Assembly (NCBI GenBank): GCA_017479425.1
Contig: JAFVCD010000036.1
Location: 12,130-76,129 of the forward strand
DNA: 64,000 bases
Direction: 5' to 3'
Source: Oscillospiraceae bacterium
GTDB lineage: Bacteria; Bacillota; Clostridia; Oscillospirales; Oscillospiraceae
Shown here in pieces: positions 1,790 to 57,485 of the stretch. Numbering within the stretch: the first letter of the stretch is position 1; each line of letters opens with the position of its first letter. The position numbers and the translations under genes are program-made. The notes beneath the pieces were generated by a model. That model ran no database searches. It had not been told where the DNA came from and saw only the letters and a program-made list of their open reading frames with translations.

Positions 1790-1898
1790 GGTATAATTGC
1801 CTATTCTGCCGTAAGTGGATTTTTTCACTTTTCTCATAATCCCGAAACAGCGGCATAATATAGCTGAAAGAGCTCCACGCAAAAACGTGGAGCTCTTC

Positions 1899-2060
1899 AA
1901 TGCGTCGACAAAGTCTCCGCATCGAACATATTTTGCGCTCTCGGAGTGCAAAATATGACGCCTGCGGGCGGGTTATGCGACGTGAAGGGGCCTCTTGGCC
2001 GGCCCCTTCACAGATCCCCGCCTCCTTTATCCAACGCTTTTTCTTTTTTGCCTACAGTCT
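1899..2060 (+). mobile_element. MITE-like structured repeat, copy 1 (162 bp), flanked by a duplicated terminator hairpin
   Basis: About 90% identical to 57291-57452 and to the reverse complement of 28457-28617. Flanked by direct repeats 1866-1898 and 2061-2094 (gaaagagctccacgcaaaaacgtgGagctctt(t)c). Internal hairpins at 1927-1957 (14 bp) and 1982-2011 (11 bp). Confidence 0.75.
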
Positions 2061-2120
2061 GAAAGAGCTCCACGCAAAAACGTGAAGCTCTTTCTGATAT
2101 GGAGGGAGAAATGATGGTGA

Positions 2121-17670: not shown

Positions 17671-17691
17671 AGTTTAATATACTGGAATTAT

Positions 17692-17750
17692 CAGACTGTA
17701 AACAAAAAGCGTCGGACAAAGTTGGCGGAGACTTTGTCTGCGCATCGAAT
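17692..17750. repeat. miniature relic related to both termini of the 162-bp repeat family
   Basis: cagactgtaaacaaaaag matches the reverse complement of the family 3' end. gcgtcggacaaagt and gcggagactttgtctgcgcat match the family 5' end in both orientations and together form a hairpin. Confidence 0.6.
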
Positions 17751-17775
17751 TATTATGCAAGGAGATCTTTTGCCG

Positions 17776-28417: not shown

Positions 28418-28456
28418 GTCAATATACGACGAAAGCTCCCCGATTCGGGGAGCTTC

Positions 28457-28617
28457 AGACTGTAGACAAAAAGGAAAAGCGGTGGATAAAGGAGGCGGGG
28501 TTCTGTGAAGGGGCCGGCCGAGAGGCCCCTTCACGTCGCATAACTCGCCCGCAGGCGTCATATTTTGCGCTCAGAGAGCGCAAAATATGTTCGATGCGGA
28601 GACTTTGTCGACGCATT
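28457..28617 (-). mobile_element. MITE-like structured repeat, copy 2 (161 bp, inverted), flanked by a duplicated terminator hairpin
   Basis: Reverse complement of the family consensus. Flanking direct repeats are aaagctccccgattcggggagctt at 28432-28455 and 28618-28641. Hairpins at 28505-28534 and 28559-28589. Confidence 0.75.
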
Positions 28618-28646
28618 AAAGCTCCCCGATTCGGGGAGCTTTTTTG

Positions 28647-36286: not shown

Positions 36287-38827
36287 TTAATAGGTGAGCG
36301 TACCGCCCTGGGAAGCAACATACTCAGCCCATGCGGCGTCGTCGTAGTTATATTTCATATAGGTGATGCCGCCGCGTCCCATGATCGGGTTCCAATCCTC
36401 GACAACGTAGAATACCTGCTTGGAGAGAAGCGCAGCGGAGGCATTCTGGAGCATCGGGATGTAGTCGTAGGTGCCGAGAACCTTACCCTCGAGAGCGGCG
36501 AGGATGGTAAGACGGGTCTCAACGTCTGCAATACCGTCTCCGAAGCAGTAATCCTTGCCGTTCGGAGCGGTTACGGTAGCGCCGTTAAGAGCGTCAGACC
36601 ACTGGCGGAGGTTCATAGTGACCTCCTCGCCCTCAACGCTGAGAGTGAGGTCGACCTTGGTGGCGTCAAACCAGCCGGCATCGTACTGATAGCTCGGGTT
36701 GACATAGAGGTCGGTAAGGCTGAACGGATCCATTCTGGAGCCGGACCAGCCCGCAAGAGCGGTATCAGCAAGACCGGCCTTGAGCTTGTTGGACCAGTCG
36801 TTTCCGTAAGGAGCGGACTTGGCGAAGCTGACCTTGCCCTCAAACGGAGTGCCGGCAGTGACCTCGTTCATCTTCTCGTTGAGGTAGTCGATGGTCTTGG
36901 TCATGAAGTCGGAATCAGCAGAGAGGGAGTATTCGATGACGATGGACTGATCGCACTTGCCGTCAGCATCTGCGTCGGTGATGTAGCCGGCCTCAAGTCC
37001 CTCGGTGAACGCCTCGCCGAAGAGGGTCTTTGCAGTCTCGGGATCGTAACCGGTGATGGACGCAACAGCGGCGTCGAGGTCGCCGTTGAAGGCGGCGAGG
37101 TCAACGGAGTAGAAATCGCAGAGCGCCTGCTTCGCCTGATCGGTATCGCGGTACATAGCGCCGGTCTCGGGATCATAGACGTAAGCGTTGCCGATGATCG
37201 CGTAGCCGCCGGAACGCGCCGGGGAAACGGTGGAGGCAAAGAGCTCCTTATCATAGGTAACGGCAATAGCCTTGCGGAAGTTGAGGTTCAGGAGCATCTG
37301 GAGATCGCGGGTGGCGGTGTCGAAATCGTCCGCCTTCTCGCGGCCCTCGATAGCATCCTTGTAGCCGTTGAGGATGAGGAAGAAGATAGTCTCATCCGGG
37401 GTGAAGTAAACGTAATCGGAATTGCGGTAGGTGGCGAAGTCCTCAGCCTGGAGACCGTAGCCCATAAGCTCGCCCTTGAGGAACATGAGCTTGTTGGTCT
37501 CAGCCTCGGGTACGACCTCGCACTCGATGATGTCGGTCTGATACATCTGATAGGTCTCGCCGTCCTCGGGATCGACGTAGACGTGCTTGCCGTCAGTCCA
37601 GCCGTACCAGTTCTCGTTCTTCTCGAACTTCATGAACTTGTCGGCCTGATAAACGGTCATCTTGTAGGGACCGTAGGAAGAGGTGGTCTCTACGCTGGTG
37701 TTGTAGGTGGAGCTCCATACTCCCTCGGACTCGGAGAGGTTAGCCTCATAGAGGTCTTCCTTGACGATCCAGTTGGAGCCGAGGTTGTAGAGAAGGTTGA
37801 AGCCTGCAAGGCTCTTTGCGAATACGATGGTGATCTGATATTCGCCGGACTTGTAGAGACCGACAGTGCTGTCATAGTCAAGGCCGGTGGCGTACTGGCC
37901 GGTGACTGTGTAGAGCTCATCGGAAGAGTATGCCTCGTAGGGGGCGCCTGCGCCGAGATACTCGTCATAGAGCTGCTTGCCGCTGAAGGCGTCGTCAACG
38001 TTCGCGCCGTACACGGTCTCGTCAAGGACGGAAACGTACTGCGGAAGGGCGTTGCCTGCCTCGTCAAGATAGGAGGCGTCTGCATTCCAGAAATCGTAAG
38101 CGTCTACATAGAGATCCTCAACGGCTCCGCCGTTTGCAAGGTACTCAGTGGTGGTTACGCCGATCGCGCCGTACTCGAGCTTGCCCTGATTGGCATAGTT
38201 CTCAGCGCCCGCGATGGAAAGACCCTGTGCATAGTAGTCAGCAGCGCGGTAGTTGAGAAGTGCCGGATCGAGGAGCTTCTTCATGGAGTAGACATAGGTA
38301 TCGGCGTTGATGGGGGTACCGTCCTCCCATGTAGCAAGCGGGTTGAGGTCGATGGTGTAGGCATAGCCGGCGGTAGCGGACTCGGGGATTCCGAATTCGG
38401 GGTGCTCAGCCTTAACCTGCTCGGTGACGTCAACGGGCATATCAGCCGCCATCTCCGGAACGATAACGTAACCGGTGTAGGGATCCTTGCCCTCAAGGGG
38501 GTGAAGCTCATCGTTGTAGATGAAGCTGTAAAGGCCCACGCGAAGGAAGTCGGCAGGATAGCTGTCGTCAGCGGTCTGATAGGTGTGGGGGTTCCAGTTG
38601 GTCGCCATTGTGCTTACGGAGTCCTGATAGGTGTAAGTAACAGGGGCAGCCGGGGTTTCGCTCTCTGCGGTGGTGTCGGTTTTCGGGGTATCACTGTTTG
38701 CGGGAGCATCTGTTTTCGGTGTTTCGGTCTGCGTCGGGGTGGTGGTGTTTCCACCGCAGGCGGCAAGAGCGAATACCATTACGAGCGCCAGCGCGAGAGC
38801 GATGACCTTGGTGAGTTTTTTGCTCAT
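36287..38827 (-). CDS. family-5 (Opp/Dpp-type) extracellular solute-binding lipoprotein, system 1 (846 aa)
   Basis: Lipobox LAACGG after MSKKLTKVIALALALVMVF, then a Thr/Pro-rich linker and an SBP_bac_5-like body. GGAGGA lies 9 nt upstream of ATG 38827. Confidence 0.85.
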   Translation of the reverse strand: MSKKLTKVIALALALVMVFALAACGGNTTTPTQTETPKTDAPANSDTPKTDTTAESETPAAPVTYTYQDSVSTMATNWNPHTYQTADDSYPADFLRVGLYSFIYNDELHPLEGKDPYTGYVIVPEMAADMPVDVTEQVKAEHPEFGIPESATAGYAYTIDLNPLATWEDGTPINADTYVYSMKKLLDPALLNYRAADYYAQGLSIAGAENYANQGKLEYGAIGVTTTEYLANGGAVEDLYVDAYDFWNADASYLDEAGNALPQYVSVLDETVYGANVDDAFSGKQLYDEYLGAGAPYEAYSSDELYTVTGQYATGLDYDSTVGLYKSGEYQITIVFAKSLAGFNLLYNLGSNWIVKEDLYEANLSESEGVWSSTYNTSVETTSSYGPYKMTVYQADKFMKFEKNENWYGWTDGKHVYVDPEDGETYQMYQTDIIECEVVPEAETNKLMFLKGELMGYGLQAEDFATYRNSDYVYFTPDETIFFLILNGYKDAIEGREKADDFDTATRDLQMLLNLNFRKAIAVTYDKELFASTVSPARSGGYAIIGNAYVYDPETGAMYRDTDQAKQALCDFYSVDLAAFNGDLDAAVASITGYDPETAKTLFGEAFTEGLEAGYITDADADGKCDQSIVIEYSLSADSDFMTKTIDYLNEKMNEVTAGTPFEGKVSFAKSAPYGNDWSNKLKAGLADTALAGWSGSRMDPFSLTDLYVNPSYQYDAGWFDATKVDLTLSVEGEEVTMNLRQWSDALNGATVTAPNGKDYCFGDGIADVETRLTILAALEGKVLGTYDYIPMLQNASAALLSKQVFYVVEDWNPIMGRGGITYMKYNYDDAAWAEYVASQGGTLTY

Positions 38828-38905
38828 GTTTCCATTTCCTCCAAAATTTTTTAAACGCACTCGGCGTTTTTTAACTTTTTCCCCGCCATTTTGCGGGTGA
38901 AGTTT

Positions 38906-45704: not shown

Positions 45705-47927
45705 TTAGAAGAGGCCGATGACTTTGGTCATGTAACCTGCGCCCTCACCGAGGAAGGTGTCGAGGTAGGTGGAAGGATCACCGTAGTCAGGACCCCAGCC
45801 GGAGCCGTAGAACATATCGAAGTTGCCGGCCTCGCCGTTGGATGCACGGTAACCGGAAGCATAGAAGTCAGCGGAGGTGGTGGCCTCAACGAGGTTGACA
45901 ACTACGTTCTCAGCGCCGAGGGTCTCCTCAACCTTTGCCTTGTAAGCATTGGCCTGAGCGGTGTTCGCATCGGAAGCGGAGTAGTAAACAACGTCGATCT
46001 TGATCGGGAAGGTAACGGCGTCGCCGAGCTCAGCCTTGGCAGCCTCGAGGTACTCCTTGGCAGCGTCAGCATTGTACCAGCCGTCTACCTGATCCTTAAC
46101 AGTGATCTTGCATCCGAGATCGTCAACGAAGGCCTGAACGATATCGCCGTAGAAGGTACCGGCAGCGAAGGTGTGACCATCATAGGTGACATCCTCGGTG
46201 ATGGAAACGAACTCGGGGTGAGTGTACATGTTGCGGAGGTTGGTCTCAGCAAGGTCAGCACCGCGGCTTACGCCGTTGTAGGTCTTCTTATCAAAGGCGT
46301 GCTGAAGAGCCTTACGGAAGTTCTTGTTGGAGAGTGCAACTGCGGTGTCGATCTTCTCCTGCTCGGTCTTCGGGGAAGCAACAGCGCCGCCCTCGAGAGC
46401 GAAGGTGCCGCGGTTGAGGTTGAGACCGCCGAAGTAAGAGGTGGAAGTGGTCTCGGAGATGTAAGCGTACTTGTCATAGTTGCCGTCTTCCTTGGCAGCG
46501 TCGAGGGTGCCGGTGGAAGCGGAGAGGCCGGTGCCGGCATATACGCCGGAAACGACGTCAGCATAGGTCTGGAGGGGGTTCTCGCCGTTATCATAGACCC
46601 AACGGACAGACTCGAGGGTAACCTTGTCTGCGTTGTAGTAGTTGGGGTTCTTTACGATGACGATCTCGGAATCCTGCTGGAGCTTCTGAAGAAGGAAGGG
46701 TCCGCAGTAAACCTGGGAAGCAACGTCCTCGGACTTGCCGTAGGTGTAGGTGTTGGTGTCAGCGGAAGCAGCAGCGAAAGCGTCGATGCCGTAAACACCG
46801 CCGTGAGCCTGATAGAAGCTGTCGCAGATCGGAAGGAAGCAGCTGTAGGTGAGCATGGTGAGGAAGTAGCTGGTCGGAGCCTCAAGGGTGATCTCGAGGG
46901 TGTGATCATCAACTGCCTTGTAGCCAACAGCGTCGAAGGAGCCGCCGGCGAGGTACTCGGAAGCACCTGCAACAACGCCCTCAACGAGCCACTCAAGACC
47001 GGCCTGAGTGTCGAGCATGTGATGGAAGCCGGCAACGAAGTCGCCCGCGGTAACGTCAGCATACTCCTTGCCCTCGGTGGTGTACCACTTAGCGCCCTCG
47101 CGGATGTGGAAGGTGTAGGTGAGACCATCGTCGGAAACAGTCCAGCTGTCAGCAAGAGCGCCGTTCATGATGTTGAGGCCGTCGTACTGAACAAGGCCGT
47201 CAACGCAGTTAACGGTGATCTCGGTATCGGACTGGGAAGAGGTGTTAAGCCAGTCGATGGTGACAGGAGCAGTCTGGAAGGTGGTAGCGTAGGTGTTCTG
47301 GATGGTGTGGCCCTTGCCGGTAAGATAAGCGGCAGGATCATACTTGGAAGCATCCTGAGCAGCTACAGCCTCGTCCCACATAGCAAAGAGATCAGCTCTC
47401 TCAGCCGGGGTAAGGAACTCGTCGGAGATGACCATGCCGAAGAGACGATCATCATCGTTGCCCCACTGAACATAAGGAACGGTACGGGGAGCTACACGGC
47501 TGATTGTGTAAGCGCCGCCCTGAGTGGTGGTCGGGATCATAACAGCGGAGTCGAGGAGATAAGCCTCAGCCTTAGCGAAGATAACAAATCTCTCGCTGAT
47601 GCTGGAAGCAGCCTTTGCCTCGTCGAGGAGAGCAGCATATCCGCCGAGAGCCCAGTCATAGATCTCTTCGTCGTCGCCGCGCTCATAGGTGCCCTCACCG
47701 AAGGTGAGATAAGCAGGCTCTTCCTCTACGGGAGCCGGCTCGTCGCTGGTGGCGGGGGTATCATTGGTAGCAGGGGTGTTGTTTGCGGGGGTATCGTTCG
47801 TTGCGGGGGTGTCGTTGGTCGCCGGAGTGTTGTTTGCGGGGGTGTTGTTGTTGCCGCAAGCAGCGAGAGCGAGGACCATTACGAGTGCCAGCGCGAGAGC
47901 GATGACCTTGGTAAGTTTCTTACTCAT
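45705..47927 (-). CDS. family-5 (Opp/Dpp-type) extracellular solute-binding lipoprotein, system 2 (740 aa)
   Basis: Lipobox LAACGN after MSKKLTKVIALALALVMVL, then a repetitive TPA(T/N)N(D/T) linker and an SBP_bac_5-like body. Confidence 0.85.
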   Translation of the reverse strand: MSKKLTKVIALALALVMVLALAACGNNNTPANNTPATNDTPATNDTPANNTPATNDTPATSDEPAPVEEEPAYLTFGEGTYERGDDEEIYDWALGGYAALLDEAKAASSISERFVIFAKAEAYLLDSAVMIPTTTQGGAYTISRVAPRTVPYVQWGNDDDRLFGMVISDEFLTPAERADLFAMWDEAVAAQDASKYDPAAYLTGKGHTIQNTYATTFQTAPVTIDWLNTSSQSDTEITVNCVDGLVQYDGLNIMNGALADSWTVSDDGLTYTFHIREGAKWYTTEGKEYADVTAGDFVAGFHHMLDTQAGLEWLVEGVVAGASEYLAGGSFDAVGYKAVDDHTLEITLEAPTSYFLTMLTYSCFLPICDSFYQAHGGVYGIDAFAAASADTNTYTYGKSEDVASQVYCGPFLLQKLQQDSEIVIVKNPNYYNADKVTLESVRWVYDNGENPLQTYADVVSGVYAGTGLSASTGTLDAAKEDGNYDKYAYISETTSTSYFGGLNLNRGTFALEGGAVASPKTEQEKIDTAVALSNKNFRKALQHAFDKKTYNGVSRGADLAETNLRNMYTHPEFVSITEDVTYDGHTFAAGTFYGDIVQAFVDDLGCKITVKDQVDGWYNADAAKEYLEAAKAELGDAVTFPIKIDVVYYSASDANTAQANAYKAKVEETLGAENVVVNLVEATTSADFYASGYRASNGEAGNFDMFYGSGWGPDYGDPSTYLDTFLGEGAGYMTKVIGLF
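47742..47852 (-). repeat. coding tandem repeat (low-complexity linker NNTPANNTPATNDTPATNDTPANNTPATNDTPATSD)
   Basis: Reiterated 15-nt units of the type ggggtatcgtt/ggtgttgtt in the DNA, translating to TPA-rich pentapeptides directly after the lipobox. Confidence 0.8.
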
Positions 47928-48272
47928 GTTTCCATTTCCTCCAAAATAAAATTTCCATTAAACGCATAGAGCGAATAATTACTGAATAAGTAAGGCGGGC
48001 TTTGCCGGTTTTATCCGTTGCCTAAGAAAAGAAAATGCAATTTATTTTTTCCGCACTTTCAAATTATAGGTGAAAATATACCCTTCCCTACGATAAACCG
48101 AATTTTAACATATCATTTTTGAAAATGCAAGCTTTTTTAAGTTACAATTAAGCTGTCTTTAAACTTTTGTCGCATATACACAAAAAATGTAGTATTGGCG
48201 AAAAATAATTTGTCATATTGCAAAATATGTGTTCATTTAAGCTCAATTACCGGCACATAATCGGCTTTTTTA

Positions 48273-52809: not shown

Positions 52810-54246
52810 ATGAAGAAAACTTTAGCACTTATCCTTGCGCTCTGCTTGGTATTTGCCCTTGCCGCCTGCGGCACTGACAACAAGCCTGCTACTTCCGGTG
52901 CAAACATTACCCCGAGCGAAACCCCGAAGCAGGATACCCCCGCTGCCCCCGCCACCGGCGCAGATCTCACTCCCAACGAGACCATCGCCGACGTCATGAC
53001 CCACGATGAGTACGTTGCCGCTCCTCTTGACTCCGACGTCAAGATCGAGACCTACGTTCAGGCGACCCAGTCCTGGTGGGACGGCAAGATCACCATCTAC
53101 GCCCAGAGCCCGGACGGCGCTTACTTCATCTACAACGCCGCCTGCGCCGAGGAGGACGCTGCAAAGCTCGTTCCCGGCACTAAGATTGCCGTTGAGGGCG
53201 TAAAGAGCGAGTGGAGCGGCGAGGTCGAGATCGTCGACGGCACCTTTGAGATCCTCGGCGGCGAGCCCTTCTACGCCAACCCCGATGACGTCACCGAGCT
53301 TCTCGGCGACCCCGCTCTCATCGACCATCAGAATGAGTACGTTTCCTTCCTCGCCATGACCATCGAGCCGATCGGCGATAATCAGGCGTTCCTCTACAAC
53401 TGGGACGGCTCCGGTCAGGAGGGCAGCGACCTCTACTTCAACGCGAGCGTCAACGGCGTAACCTACAACTTCACCGTTGAGAGCTACCTCACCGGCTCCG
53501 GCACTGAGGTCTATGAGGCAGTCAAGAACCTCAAAATCGGTGACGTTGTCGATATGGCCGGCTACCTCTACTGGTACAACGGTGCAAATCCCCACATCAC
53601 CGCAGTCTCGAAGTCCCAGTTCATGAGTCACAACGACTACCTTCTCGCCGATCTTGACACCCCCGTAACCATCATGACCTACGTTCAGGCGCATCAGTCC
53701 TGGTGGGACGGCAAGCTCACCATCTACGCTCAGAGCCCGGACGGCGCTTACTTCATCTACAACGCCGAGTGCGACGAGGAAACCGCAAACTCCCTCGTTC
53801 CCGGCACCAAGATCGCAGTTACCGGCTATAAGAGCGAGTGGGCGGGCGAGACTGAGATCGTCGACGCCAAGATCTATCCCTACTCCAACGGCAACTATAT
53901 TGCTGAGCCGACCGATGTCACCGAGCTTCTTGACACACCTGAGCTTATCAGCCATCAGAACGAGTTTGTATCGTTCAAGGGCATGAAGGTCGAGCCGGTA
54001 AACGGCGACAAGGCGTTCATGTACAGCTGGGACGGCTCCGGTGAAGAGGGCAGCGACCTCTACTTCGACGTCAGTGTGAACGGCAAGACCTACACCTTCA
54101 CCGTTGAGAGCTACCTCTGCGGCCCCGGCACCGAGGTCTACGAGGCAGTCAAGAACCTCAAGGTCGGCGATATCGTCGATATGGAGGGCTTCCTCTACTG
54201 GTATGAGGGCGTAAATCCGCACATCACCTCCGTCACCGTAAAGTAA
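52810..54246 (+). CDS. lipoprotein with two tandem ~209-aa repeats (each with two OB-fold-like modules), function unknown
   Basis: Lipobox LAACGT and a Pro/Thr linker, followed by an internal duplication of about 70% aa identity. Confidence 0.75.
   Translation: MKKTLALILALCLVFALAACGTDNKPATSGANITPSETPKQDTPAAPATGADLTPNETIADVMTHDEYVAAPLDSDVKIETYVQATQSWWDGKITIYAQSPDGAYFIYNAACAEEDAAKLVPGTKIAVEGVKSEWSGEVEIVDGTFEILGGEPFYANPDDVTELLGDPALIDHQNEYVSFLAMTIEPIGDNQAFLYNWDGSGQEGSDLYFNASVNGVTYNFTVESYLTGSGTEVYEAVKNLKIGDVVDMAGYLYWYNGANPHITAVSKSQFMSHNDYLLADLDTPVTIMTYVQAHQSWWDGKLTIYAQSPDGAYFIYNAECDEETANSLVPGTKIAVTGYKSEWAGETEIVDAKIYPYSNGNYIAEPTDVTELLDTPELISHQNEFVSFKGMKVEPVNGDKAFMYSWDGSGEEGSDLYFDVSVNGKTYTFTVESYLCGPGTEVYEAVKNLKVGDIVDMEGFLYWYEGVNPHITSVTVK
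52993..54243 (+). repeat. intragenic tandem duplication (2 x ~625 bp)
   Basis: Repeat 1 spans 52993-53619 and repeat 2 spans 53620-54243. Shared blocks include YVQA.QSWWDGK.TIYAQSPDGAYFIYNA and GSDLYF..SVNG.TY.FTVESYL. Confidence 0.85.
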
Positions 54247-57254: not shown

Positions 57255-57290
57255 TAAAAACAAAAGCGGGCGGCTGTGATAGCCGCCCCC
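57255..57290 (-). terminator. Rho-independent terminator (minus strand) abutting repeat copy 3
   Basis: On the minus strand: gggcggct-atca-cagccgccc followed by gcttttgttttt. Confidence 0.65.
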
Positions 57291-57452
57291 AATGCGTCGA
57301 CAAAGTCTCCGCATCGAACATATTTTGCGCTCAGAGAGCGCAAAATATGACGCCTGCGGGCGGATTATGCGACGTGAAGGGGCCTCTTGGCCGGCCCCTT
57401 CACAGATCCCCGCCTTCTTTATCCAACGCTTTTTCCATTTTGTCTACAGTCT
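57291..57452 (+). mobile_element. MITE-like structured repeat, copy 3 (162 bp), lying between the CDF gene stop and its terminator
   Basis: Same consensus as copies 1 and 2. Perfect 14-bp hairpin catattttgcgctc-aga-gagcgcaaaatatg and 11-bp hairpin gtgaaggggcc...ggccccttcac. Confidence 0.75.
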
Positions 57453-57485
57453 GAAAGCAAAGGGAGTTTTTGTCAACTTGTTCTC

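Follow-up and report, generated by a model that had tools for sequence, protein, structure and literature searches.

We find that a short repeat in the window (the whole 64,000-nt stretch of Oscillospiraceae DNA analysed) is non-coding and mobile, and that its insertion prefers palindromic, terminator-like intergenic hairpins, leaving one full hairpin on each side. The repeat is very probably an IS1182-type MITE, non-autonomous and moved by an IS1182-family DDE transposase, with the target palindrome being engaged as a cruciform or an equivalent symmetric structure.

Copies in the window and the empty site of copy 1

The copies found in the window, and the sequences flanking them, are as follows:

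1898–2061, + strand: MITE copy 1, 164 bp, CAATGCGTCGACAAAG...TTTGCCTACAGTCTG
1867–1897: target hairpin of copy 1, left, AAAGAGCTCCACG-CAAAAA-CGTGGAGCTCTT, with borders ambiguous by up to 3 nt
2062–2092: target hairpin of copy 1, right, with one G>A stem substitution
17692–17746, − strand: mini copy, 55 nt, a left terminus of 22 nt fused to a right terminus of about 33 nt
17747–17753 and 17685–17691: 7-bp duplication ATAATTC around the mini copy, hairpin absent
28456–28617, − strand: MITE copy 3, 162 bp, in inverted orientation; inverted repeat at 95%
28618–28641: 24-bp hairpin AAGCTCCCCGAATCGGGGAGCTTT, adjoining the left end of copy 3, between convergent genes
28432–28455: second copy of the 24-bp hairpin AAGCTCCCCGAATCGGGGAGCTTT, adjoining the right end of copy 3
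57290–57453, + strand: MITE copy 2, 164 bp, with a hairpin on the left only and no flank duplication
57268–57288: lone hairpin GGGCGGC-TGTGATA-GCCGCCC, abutting copy 2 on its left

The first-pass annotation had placed a repeat of about 162 bp at three of these positions, and the copies are indeed there, with pairwise identities of 92–95%; a 33-nt probe from the GC-rich hairpin had exactly three matches in the window, none being expected by chance. While the repeat is real, the limits given for its 162-bp core need a small correction, as the duplications place each end 1–2 nt further out, at C-(A/G)ATGCG...CAGTCTG. The imperfect terminal inverted repeats (GTCGACAAAG / GTAGACAAAA) are present as described, as are the internal 14-bp and 11-bp hairpins, conserved across 65 aligned copies, and copy 1 does lie between two copies of one 31–34-nt hairpin with a single stem mismatch. 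A different hairpin, again duplicated, had been assigned to the copy at 57291; this was mistaken, and it is the inverted copy at 28456–28617 that has one, of 24 bp. The state of copy 2, with its unduplicated hairpin on the left only, is the same at the orthologous site in the MAG RGIG3191 (L048), to which the window is 98.4% identical over 8 kb. The hairpin at 28618–28641 is followed by a T-run on the + strand and was flagged as terminator-like. A fourth, 55-nt copy in the window, consisting of the termini only, had been overlooked earlier; this mini copy at 17692–17746 was revealed by probes for both termini and is kept in RGIG3191 (L007).

Evidence for mobility comes from sites lacking the element. 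The 143-aa protein encoded beside copy 1 is present on nine public contigs, and four of the five contig places shown carry the element as far as the contig extends. In L005, from a Logan assembly, a single hairpin lies between the same two genes and the element is absent; L005 and the window are 98.6% identical over 1,246 nt, the sole gap corresponds to window positions 1898–2092, and its 195 bp are exactly the element plus one hairpin copy. Because L005 lacks exactly the element and one hairpin, the flanking hairpins are true target-site duplications. The search for empty, single-hairpin sites suggested in the first-pass annotation gave a second case in a sister species, the orthologous site in the MAG RGIG1539 (L032:6200–6240) having one hairpin and no element. 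The earlier interpretation of the locus-specific flanks as target-site duplications thus agrees with both of these sites and with about 50 further loci, and that of a non-coding mobile repeat with the 195-bp empty site and the lack of any gene called inside the element in the public contigs.

The family in two goat-gut MAGs and the geometry of the duplications

A 21-mer from the left end of the MITE matched 84 stretches in the GTDB genome collection and, one chance match aside, all of them come from two goat-gut Oscillospiraceae MAGs, RGIG3191 and RGIG1539, which are 85–92% identical to each other where alignable. Each of these copies is about 162 bp long or cut by a contig end, and no long copy with the MITE left end was found in the GTDB genome collection. 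The same 21-mer had no matches in JGI metagenome contigs or in IMG/VR, and BLASTN of the element against the PLSDB plasmids gave chance matches only. The two MAGs, both incomplete, contain at least 30 and at least 50 copies, and the 64-kb window contains 4. The copies lie in intergenic DNA in both orientations and measure 162–165 bp, with 1-nt indels among the 65 aligned, and have the terminal inverted repeats CAATGCGTCGACAAAG and CAGACTGTAGACAAAA (right end as reverse complement); L047 is a copy whose right end repeats the left end perfectly in inverted form. Many copies sit at contig ends, so the MAG assemblies are broken by the MITE repeats. The flanks of 74 non-redundant copies were classified with a strict perfect-stem test:

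36 copies: stem and loop identical on both sides
9 copies: same stem, a few loop substitutions
5 copies: hairpins on both sides, stems differing by substitutions
3 copies: same hairpin, loop exactly reverse-complemented (L012, L051, L058)
15 copies: hairpin on one side only
6 copies: hairpin absent

This tabulation of hairpins and duplications for every copy, another check proposed earlier, gives the same locus-specific hairpin on both sides in about 50 of the 74 copies; in 14 of the 74, the same hairpin shows a few substitutions (nine copies in the loop and five in the stem class). Several of the one-sided calls, window copy 1 included, are duplicated hairpins with a single stem mismatch, and L060 adds a fourth case of an inverted loop, in this instance with one mismatch. 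At five independent non-hairpin sites, the duplication is only 6–9 bp. About a quarter of the copies deviate by having a one-sided hairpin, differing hairpins or inverted loops, and to explain these, secondary events or another mode of insertion must be invoked.

The geometry was studied in 47 clean hairpin duplications, with the palindrome length taken from the reconstructed empty site. The duplications are 19–34 bp long (median 26, sd 3.3), and their length correlates with that of the palindrome (r=0.65, p=8e-7); relative to the stem feet, the mean positions of the two borders are 0.8 and 1.0 nt further in, and the two offsets are themselves correlated (r=0.69), differing by at most 1 nt in 35 of the 47 cases. 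Around each palindrome centre, the cuts are placed symmetrically, and they shift with palindrome size. An intrinsic stagger of about 25 bp on B-DNA, of the IS1634/IS1549 type, would require no secondary structure, the preference for terminators then coming from composition or bending. Long, variable duplications do occur in IS4-related groups, and terminators, AT-flanked and intergenic, are places where insertions are tolerated. We nevertheless find this explanation improbable and rejected it on the duplication geometry: a fixed long stagger cannot yield borders that sit at the stem feet, symmetric about the palindrome centre and scaling with its length, when the same element yields only 6–9 bp in ordinary, non-palindromic DNA, and the 20–41-bp duplications of the full-length relatives described below are again exactly hairpins. 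The border pattern can be produced if strand transfer occurs at the base of a folded target with two-fold symmetry, and the border geometry is best read, in line with the first-pass annotation, as staggered joining at a hairpin's or cruciform's foot. We infer cruciform extrusion from this geometry alone; alternatively, the target may be a hairpin on single-stranded DNA at the fork, or the palindrome may be recognised as B-DNA.

Relative to the flanking genes, the copies show no orientation bias (12 against 13 in tandem contexts), and the commonest setting is convergent intergenic (26 of 63 sites), both counts resting on rough gene calls. The lack of bias speaks, though not conclusively, against a transcription-coupled or single-strand-specific process. 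Insertion beside single-stranded-DNA hairpins by a retroelement-type, target-primed route or by a single-strand system (IS200/IS605, IS110/bridge-RNA, group IIC intron-like) seems extremely unlikely to us, even though terminators or REP palindromes are homing sites of group IIC introns and of several members of IS110 and IS3, and a variable duplication length is typical of target-primed insertion. Those systems leave the hairpin unduplicated, and the MITE shows no strand or orientation bias; its terminal inverted repeats are of the DDE type and unrelated to intron or bridge-RNA structures (Rfam negative), and the cognate full-length elements encode DDE transposases.

IS1182-family relatives, the ends of the MITE and its internal structure

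The 16-mer at the right end of the MITE, TTTTGTCTACAGTCTG, matched 35 IMG/VR loci, and many of these are the right ends of 1,506–1,655-bp elements in which the opposite end carries this terminus inverted and the sequence just outside is a locus-specific hairpin. The inverted repeat of these 1.5–1.65-kb elements is CAGACTGTAGACAAAG (16 bp). Their single ORFs, of 459–513 aa, contain DUF772, DDE_Tnp_1 and DDE_Tnp_1_6 and score 469 and 486 bits on the NCBIfam model NF033551 'IS1182 family transposase' (cutoff 270); IS1182-family transposases number at least 8,000 proteins at E<1e-30. Further copies reached via two of these proteins have the inverted repeat CAGACTGTAGACAAAG and a hairpin abutting each end. 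The search for a longer element that shares the MITE termini and encodes a transposase, also suggested earlier, thus led to IS1182-type elements (right end 15/16, left end 11–12/16), and in several of these, on contigs that are no assembly chimeras, the hairpin is duplicated:

L108: duplicated hairpin at full-length IS, 22 bp
L115: duplicated hairpin at full-length IS, 20 bp
L127: duplicated hairpin at full-length IS, 41 bp
L128/L134: duplicated hairpin at full-length IS, 24 bp
L140: duplicated hairpin at full-length IS, 27 bp

Contigs with unlike hairpins on the left and right are most simply explained as assembly chimeras across a multicopy IS. For the IS1182 family, ISfinder gives direct repeats of 0–60 bp.

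Compared with CAGACTGTAGACAAAG, the right terminus of the MITE agrees at 15 of the 16 positions and the left terminus at 11, the latter rising to 12 of 16 against CAGCCTGTCGACAAAG, a variant found in some of these IS. As the 16-bp terminal inverted repeats belong to an IS1182-family clade, an IS1182-family DDE transposase acting in trans is the most likely mover, and it is from these ends that we infer the identity of the mobilising enzyme. The 163-bp element itself encodes nothing, including no IS1182-family transposase (NF033551), and therefore belongs with IS1182-derived or IS1182-dependent elements rather than with the IS themselves. The left inverted repeat is fairly diverged from the consensus of the IS1182 clade.

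The MAG RGIG1539, with about 50 copies of the MITE, includes the final 71 codons of a transposase gene of the IS1182 family, 77% identical over 35 aa to the protein of L108; on the 3′ side come a subterminal hairpin, then the terminus ...TTTGTCTACAGTTTG and then a target hairpin (L053:2–266), the right inverted repeat CAAACTGTAGACAAAT lying beside the hairpin. Judging by this 245-bp 3′ fragment (L053:2–245), from which it is known there, the MITE host lineage carries an IS1182-type element too. Right ends of a similar kind were also seen in a further Oscillospiraceae MAG and a contig from a bioreactor. For the rest of the RGIG1539 element, a search with the 71-aa C-terminal fragment gave matches of at best 67% identity, all partial, and the route via the neighbouring helicase ended in a cluster representative on an uninformative 2.7-kb contig. 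All full-length elements seen with the same inverted repeat lie in other contigs (IMG/VR, ENA, Logan, NCBI), not in the MAGs that host the MITE, and none with the exact left end of the MITE was found. In about 600 kb of MAG sequence, a scan for palindromic direct repeats 40–5000 bp apart returned only the MITEs themselves, and one for inverted pairs of the TIR core 0.3–3.5 kb apart returned nothing convincing. The interior of the MITE beyond the 16-bp inverted repeats resembles none of the full-length elements, and by this comparison, none of those seen could have given rise to the MITE by simple deletion. The sole match to the TIR in the literature searched, ISPsy19 (GAGGGTGTAGACAAAAT, 3-nt duplication), gave a hint of IS5/IS1182-like ends.

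The consensus of the MITE folds at −48.5 kcal/mol and keeps the three hairpins described in the first-pass annotation, and the copies, found in 3′ intergenic regions, are probably co-transcribed. One could take the core for a structured RNA gene or a cis-regulatory RNA (an sRNA or 3′UTR element), with the flanking hairpins as transcription signals. Nearly all stem pairs are invariant, however, with double changes in only 2 of 40 pairs among 65 copies and a covariation term of −0.1; the one pair that often varies is G-C in 43 copies, A-U in 13, A.C in 6 and G.U in 2. Given six A.C against two G.U and the near-invariant pairs, there is no wobble excess on the proposed strand and no real covariation support, and the G-T pair previously taken as weak evidence of function as RNA or ssDNA on that strand finds no support as such. 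Rfam 15 had no match at the gathering threshold in the whole window, and a scan of the locus at E≤10 had a best E-value of 0.43, far below the cutoffs. Further, the hairpins are unlike between loci and alike within a locus, an empty site exists, the terminal inverted repeats are common to transposase-encoding elements, and the orientation relative to genes is random. We therefore regard an RNA gene as a highly improbable reading, although the MITE may acquire a secondary RNA role after insertion. The full-length IS carry a hairpin just inside each inverted repeat as well, and for this reason, the end-near internal hairpins of the IS1182-type MITE may, speculatively, be part of the transposition substrate.

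A model of hairpin duplication and its place among known systems

The mechanism of the hairpin-duplicating transposition is only a model. An IS1182-family DDE transposase would act in trans on the MITE ends, and the target palindrome would be engaged as a cruciform that has been extruded, or as a structure equivalent to one in its two-fold symmetry. Strand transfer would take place at the cruciform base, and gap repair of the two single-stranded stem-loops would copy the whole stem-loop and create a direct duplication, the length of which would then be set by the hairpin (19–34 bp), not by a fixed stagger; in non-palindromic DNA, the same reaction would give a 6–9-bp duplication. The loop-inverted copies could result from template switching inside the hairpin during gap repair or from later flipping between the stem arms. 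Quite possible, though we put it forward with some doubt, is that the clade and the MITE use a structure-specific integration, the cruciform being read as a four-way junction and the transfers taking place at its base whatever the sequence, with the inverted loops as scars of hairpin-templated repair. If true, the approximately 85 natural insertions would amount to a catalogue of targets for a DNA insertion system guided by structure and independent of sequence, and one that keeps a terminator-like hairpin standing on either side of its insert.

With a hairpin surviving on each side, the neighbouring genes keep a terminator-like hairpin, and it is plausible that a genome could put up with tens of copies because of the retained flanking hairpins. 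An element that leaves a hairpin on each side, if not in every case a T-run, would also have a route to high copy number. The term terminator is here positional and structural, as many of the flanking hairpins had no canonical T-run in a strict scan. Related to this, the proximal hairpin copy can lose its T-run, for example at 28432–28455, and transcription would then be likely to read through into the element.

Hairpin targeting is known from IS1272, a member of the IS1182 family, which, like TnSha1, inserts in terminator hairpins verified by RNA-seq with no sequence consensus (Furi et al., PMC4923244) and targets hairpins without sequence specificity (PMC4923244, PMC5678879). In the IS1272 model, pathway a, with attack at the 3′ feet, was proposed to explain stem-loop deletion (PMC5678879), and pathway b is a cruciform model that predicts that the entire stem-loop is duplicated (Fig. 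13 of Wan et al., PMC5678879); the mechanism proposed for the MITE is exactly this pathway b. Some IS1182-family members are said to target palindromes (Siguier 2015, as cited in PMC4923244 and PMC5678879), with no detailed data on this given there according to the latter (PMC5678879). The IS1182 family (IS1182, IS1272) and the MITE have the 16-bp inverted repeat in common, at 15/16 and 11–12/16, and alike abut or duplicate locus-specific hairpins. The family encodes a DDE transposase (DUF772 + DDE_Tnp_1_6), whereas the 163-bp MITE encodes none, and published IS1272 insertions show partial stem-loop deletion and no duplication, whereas the MITE clade duplicates the entire stem-loop.

A similar scar is left by IS1630, an IS30-family element whose duplicated repeats, according to a 1999 abstract, reportedly derive from rho-independent terminators, and an IS1630-like transposase could be imagined to mobilise the MITE. 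IS1630 of Mycoplasma fermentans duplicates 19–26-bp inverted repeats (PMC2853133; PMC3317919) and ISMhom-1 of M. hominis behaves similarly (PMC7648426), the same phenotype as in the MITE. The likeness of the duplications, however, is not exclusive to IS30: IS1182-type full-length elements themselves duplicate hairpins, the MITE termini match the inverted repeats of elements whose transposases are of the IS1182 and not of the IS30 family, and the sole transposase fragment seen in a MITE-bearing MAG is of the IS1182 type. Mobilisation by an IS30-family enzyme is thus very unlikely. IS1630 and ISMhom-1 are autonomous, 1.26–1.38 kb long, with 27-bp inverted repeats and few copies per genome, and no evidence was found that ties the MITE to IS30-type ends, the transposases with matching termini all being of the IS1182 type.

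Two further systems resemble the IS1182-type MITE in part. IS1397, ISPpu9/ISPpu10 and others also insert into extragenic palindromes (REP/BIME; PMC1525189, PMC12288879); they use one palindrome family and insert inside it with a short duplication or none, whereas every hairpin used by the MITE is different and wholly duplicated. Cas1 integrases, in CRISPR spacer acquisition and in casposons, perform two strand transfers that border a unit of about 30 bp, often palindromic, which gap repair duplicates (for casposons, PMC5137440). Their targets are sequence- and leader-dependent, whereas those of the MITE have no common sequence and Cas1 is not associated with it; the likeness is a mechanistic analogy for a structure-bounded stagger, not membership.

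To our knowledge, terminator-hairpin targeting has been documented for a handful of IS, and whole-hairpin duplication only for the mycoplasma IS30-family elements. The first-pass annotation had supposed that no described class duplicates a terminator stem-loop, but the duplications by IS1630 (PMC2853133), the targeting by IS1272 (PMC4923244) and pathway b (PMC5678879) say otherwise. As both hairpin duplication by IS1630 and palindrome targeting by the IS1182 family are published, the class already exists, and the element is an IS1182-type MITE within it, not a new class. In the literature searched, no description of a MITE with hairpin duplication was found, and IS1182 and hairpin duplication are both absent from a 2024 review of prokaryotic MITEs. 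What the MITE offers is a set of scars preserved intact at dozens of independent insertions, together with an empty site and full-length elements of the IS1182 type that match it, and the data show that duplication length tracks the hairpin, the borders are symmetric and duplications at non-palindromic sites are short; the insertions are natural evidence for structure-directed transposition. Tandem duplicated terminators about 160 bp apart in Oscillospiraceae genomes are, in consequence, insertion scars and not regulatory architecture.

Ends and spread of the IS1182-type elements

The full-length IS1182-type elements, 1.5-1.65 kb long and encoding a transposase, carry a hairpin of their own just inside each 16-bp terminal inverted repeat in all cases examined (L108, L127, L138, L115 and L107), and an inserted copy thus reads, at both ends, as target hairpin, inverted repeat and subterminal hairpin. 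A partial element was found in one of the goat-gut Oscillospiraceae MAGs:

L053:1-266, contig JAFPWN010000052.1 of MAG RGIG1539: terminal (3') part of a transposase gene of the IS1182 family, with the right end of the IS

The fragment lies directly 3' of a UvrD/PcrA-type helicase gene and runs from the transposase gene 3' end through a subterminal hairpin and the terminus TTTGTCTACAGTTTG to the target hairpin; the RGIG1539 element is known from this 3' portion in L053 alone. In viral or prophage contigs (L090, L094, L097, L105, L113 and related IMG/VR loci), several further sequence families likewise end in the 16-mer TTTTGTCTACAGTCTG with a hairpin specific to the locus after it. The IS1182 clade with such ends, or further MITEs of that clade, therefore seems to be widely distributed in low-GC sequence of Firmicutes-like type.

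Reduced and rearranged forms of the MITE

Two forms retain only terminal parts of the MITE:

Window 17692-17746, minus strand (also L007:4508-4562): mini copy of 55 nt, both MITE termini only
L018:2219-2245: solo left MITE terminus, AATGCGTCGACAAAGTCTCCGCATTGA, with the rest of the element missing

The mini copy, common to the window and MAG RGIG3191 (L007), is flanked by a 7-bp duplication, ATAATTC, with the hairpin absent, and it suggests that the terminal ~22 and ~33 nt of the MITE may be enough for transposition. The solo terminus, flanked by two unlike terminator hairpins, may be a deletion remnant or else an excision footprint.

Copies also differ between orthologous sites. At an orthologous terminator in the two MITE-bearing MAGs, RGIG3191 and RGIG1539, the MITEs at L026:4916-5078 and L030:5024-5192 have opposite orientations within collinear flanks, reflecting either independent insertions into one hairpin or inversion of the element, with the inverted arms of the two hairpin copies as endpoints. 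The copy at L047:1162-1330, in one of these MAGs, ends on the right in TTTTGTCGACGCATT, which repeats the MITE left terminus perfectly in inverted form; its ortholog in the other MAG, L041, has a right end of the usual type. The two have in common an 8-bp duplication, ACGGCGAA, corresponding to the 5' arm of a hairpin found on the right side only.

The flanking hairpins themselves can be rearranged. On either side of the MITE in L012, L051 and L058, the hairpins match and one loop is the perfect reverse complement of the other; the same holds for L060 with one mismatch. Template switching in gap repair is a possible explanation for this loop inversion, as is a flip that took place afterwards between the two arms of the stem. 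L044 possibly has a loop-inverted pair as well.

Promoter-like match and other repeats in the window

Window 1905-1934 (plus strand) and 28582-28611 (minus strand): sigma-70-like match inside the MITE left end, reading inward
Window 52994-54213: two adjoining ~627-bp units, 78-83% identity (repeat families D2, D7 and D13)
Window 47743-47862: G/T-rich repeat array with an 18-nt period
Window 38738-38847 and 47838-47947: 110-nt segment in two copies, 86% identity, 9.1 kb apart

The sigma-70-like match is weak (TCGACA and CATATT/TATTTT with a spacer of 16-18 nt, 9/12) and probably due to chance. The ~627-bp units look like a tandem duplication inside or between coding sequences. Both the 18-nt array and the 110-nt repeat are close to paralogous genes for ABC-transporter-like ATPases; these genes also occur as repeats, at about 30.5-33.5 kb and 40.3-42.8 kb.
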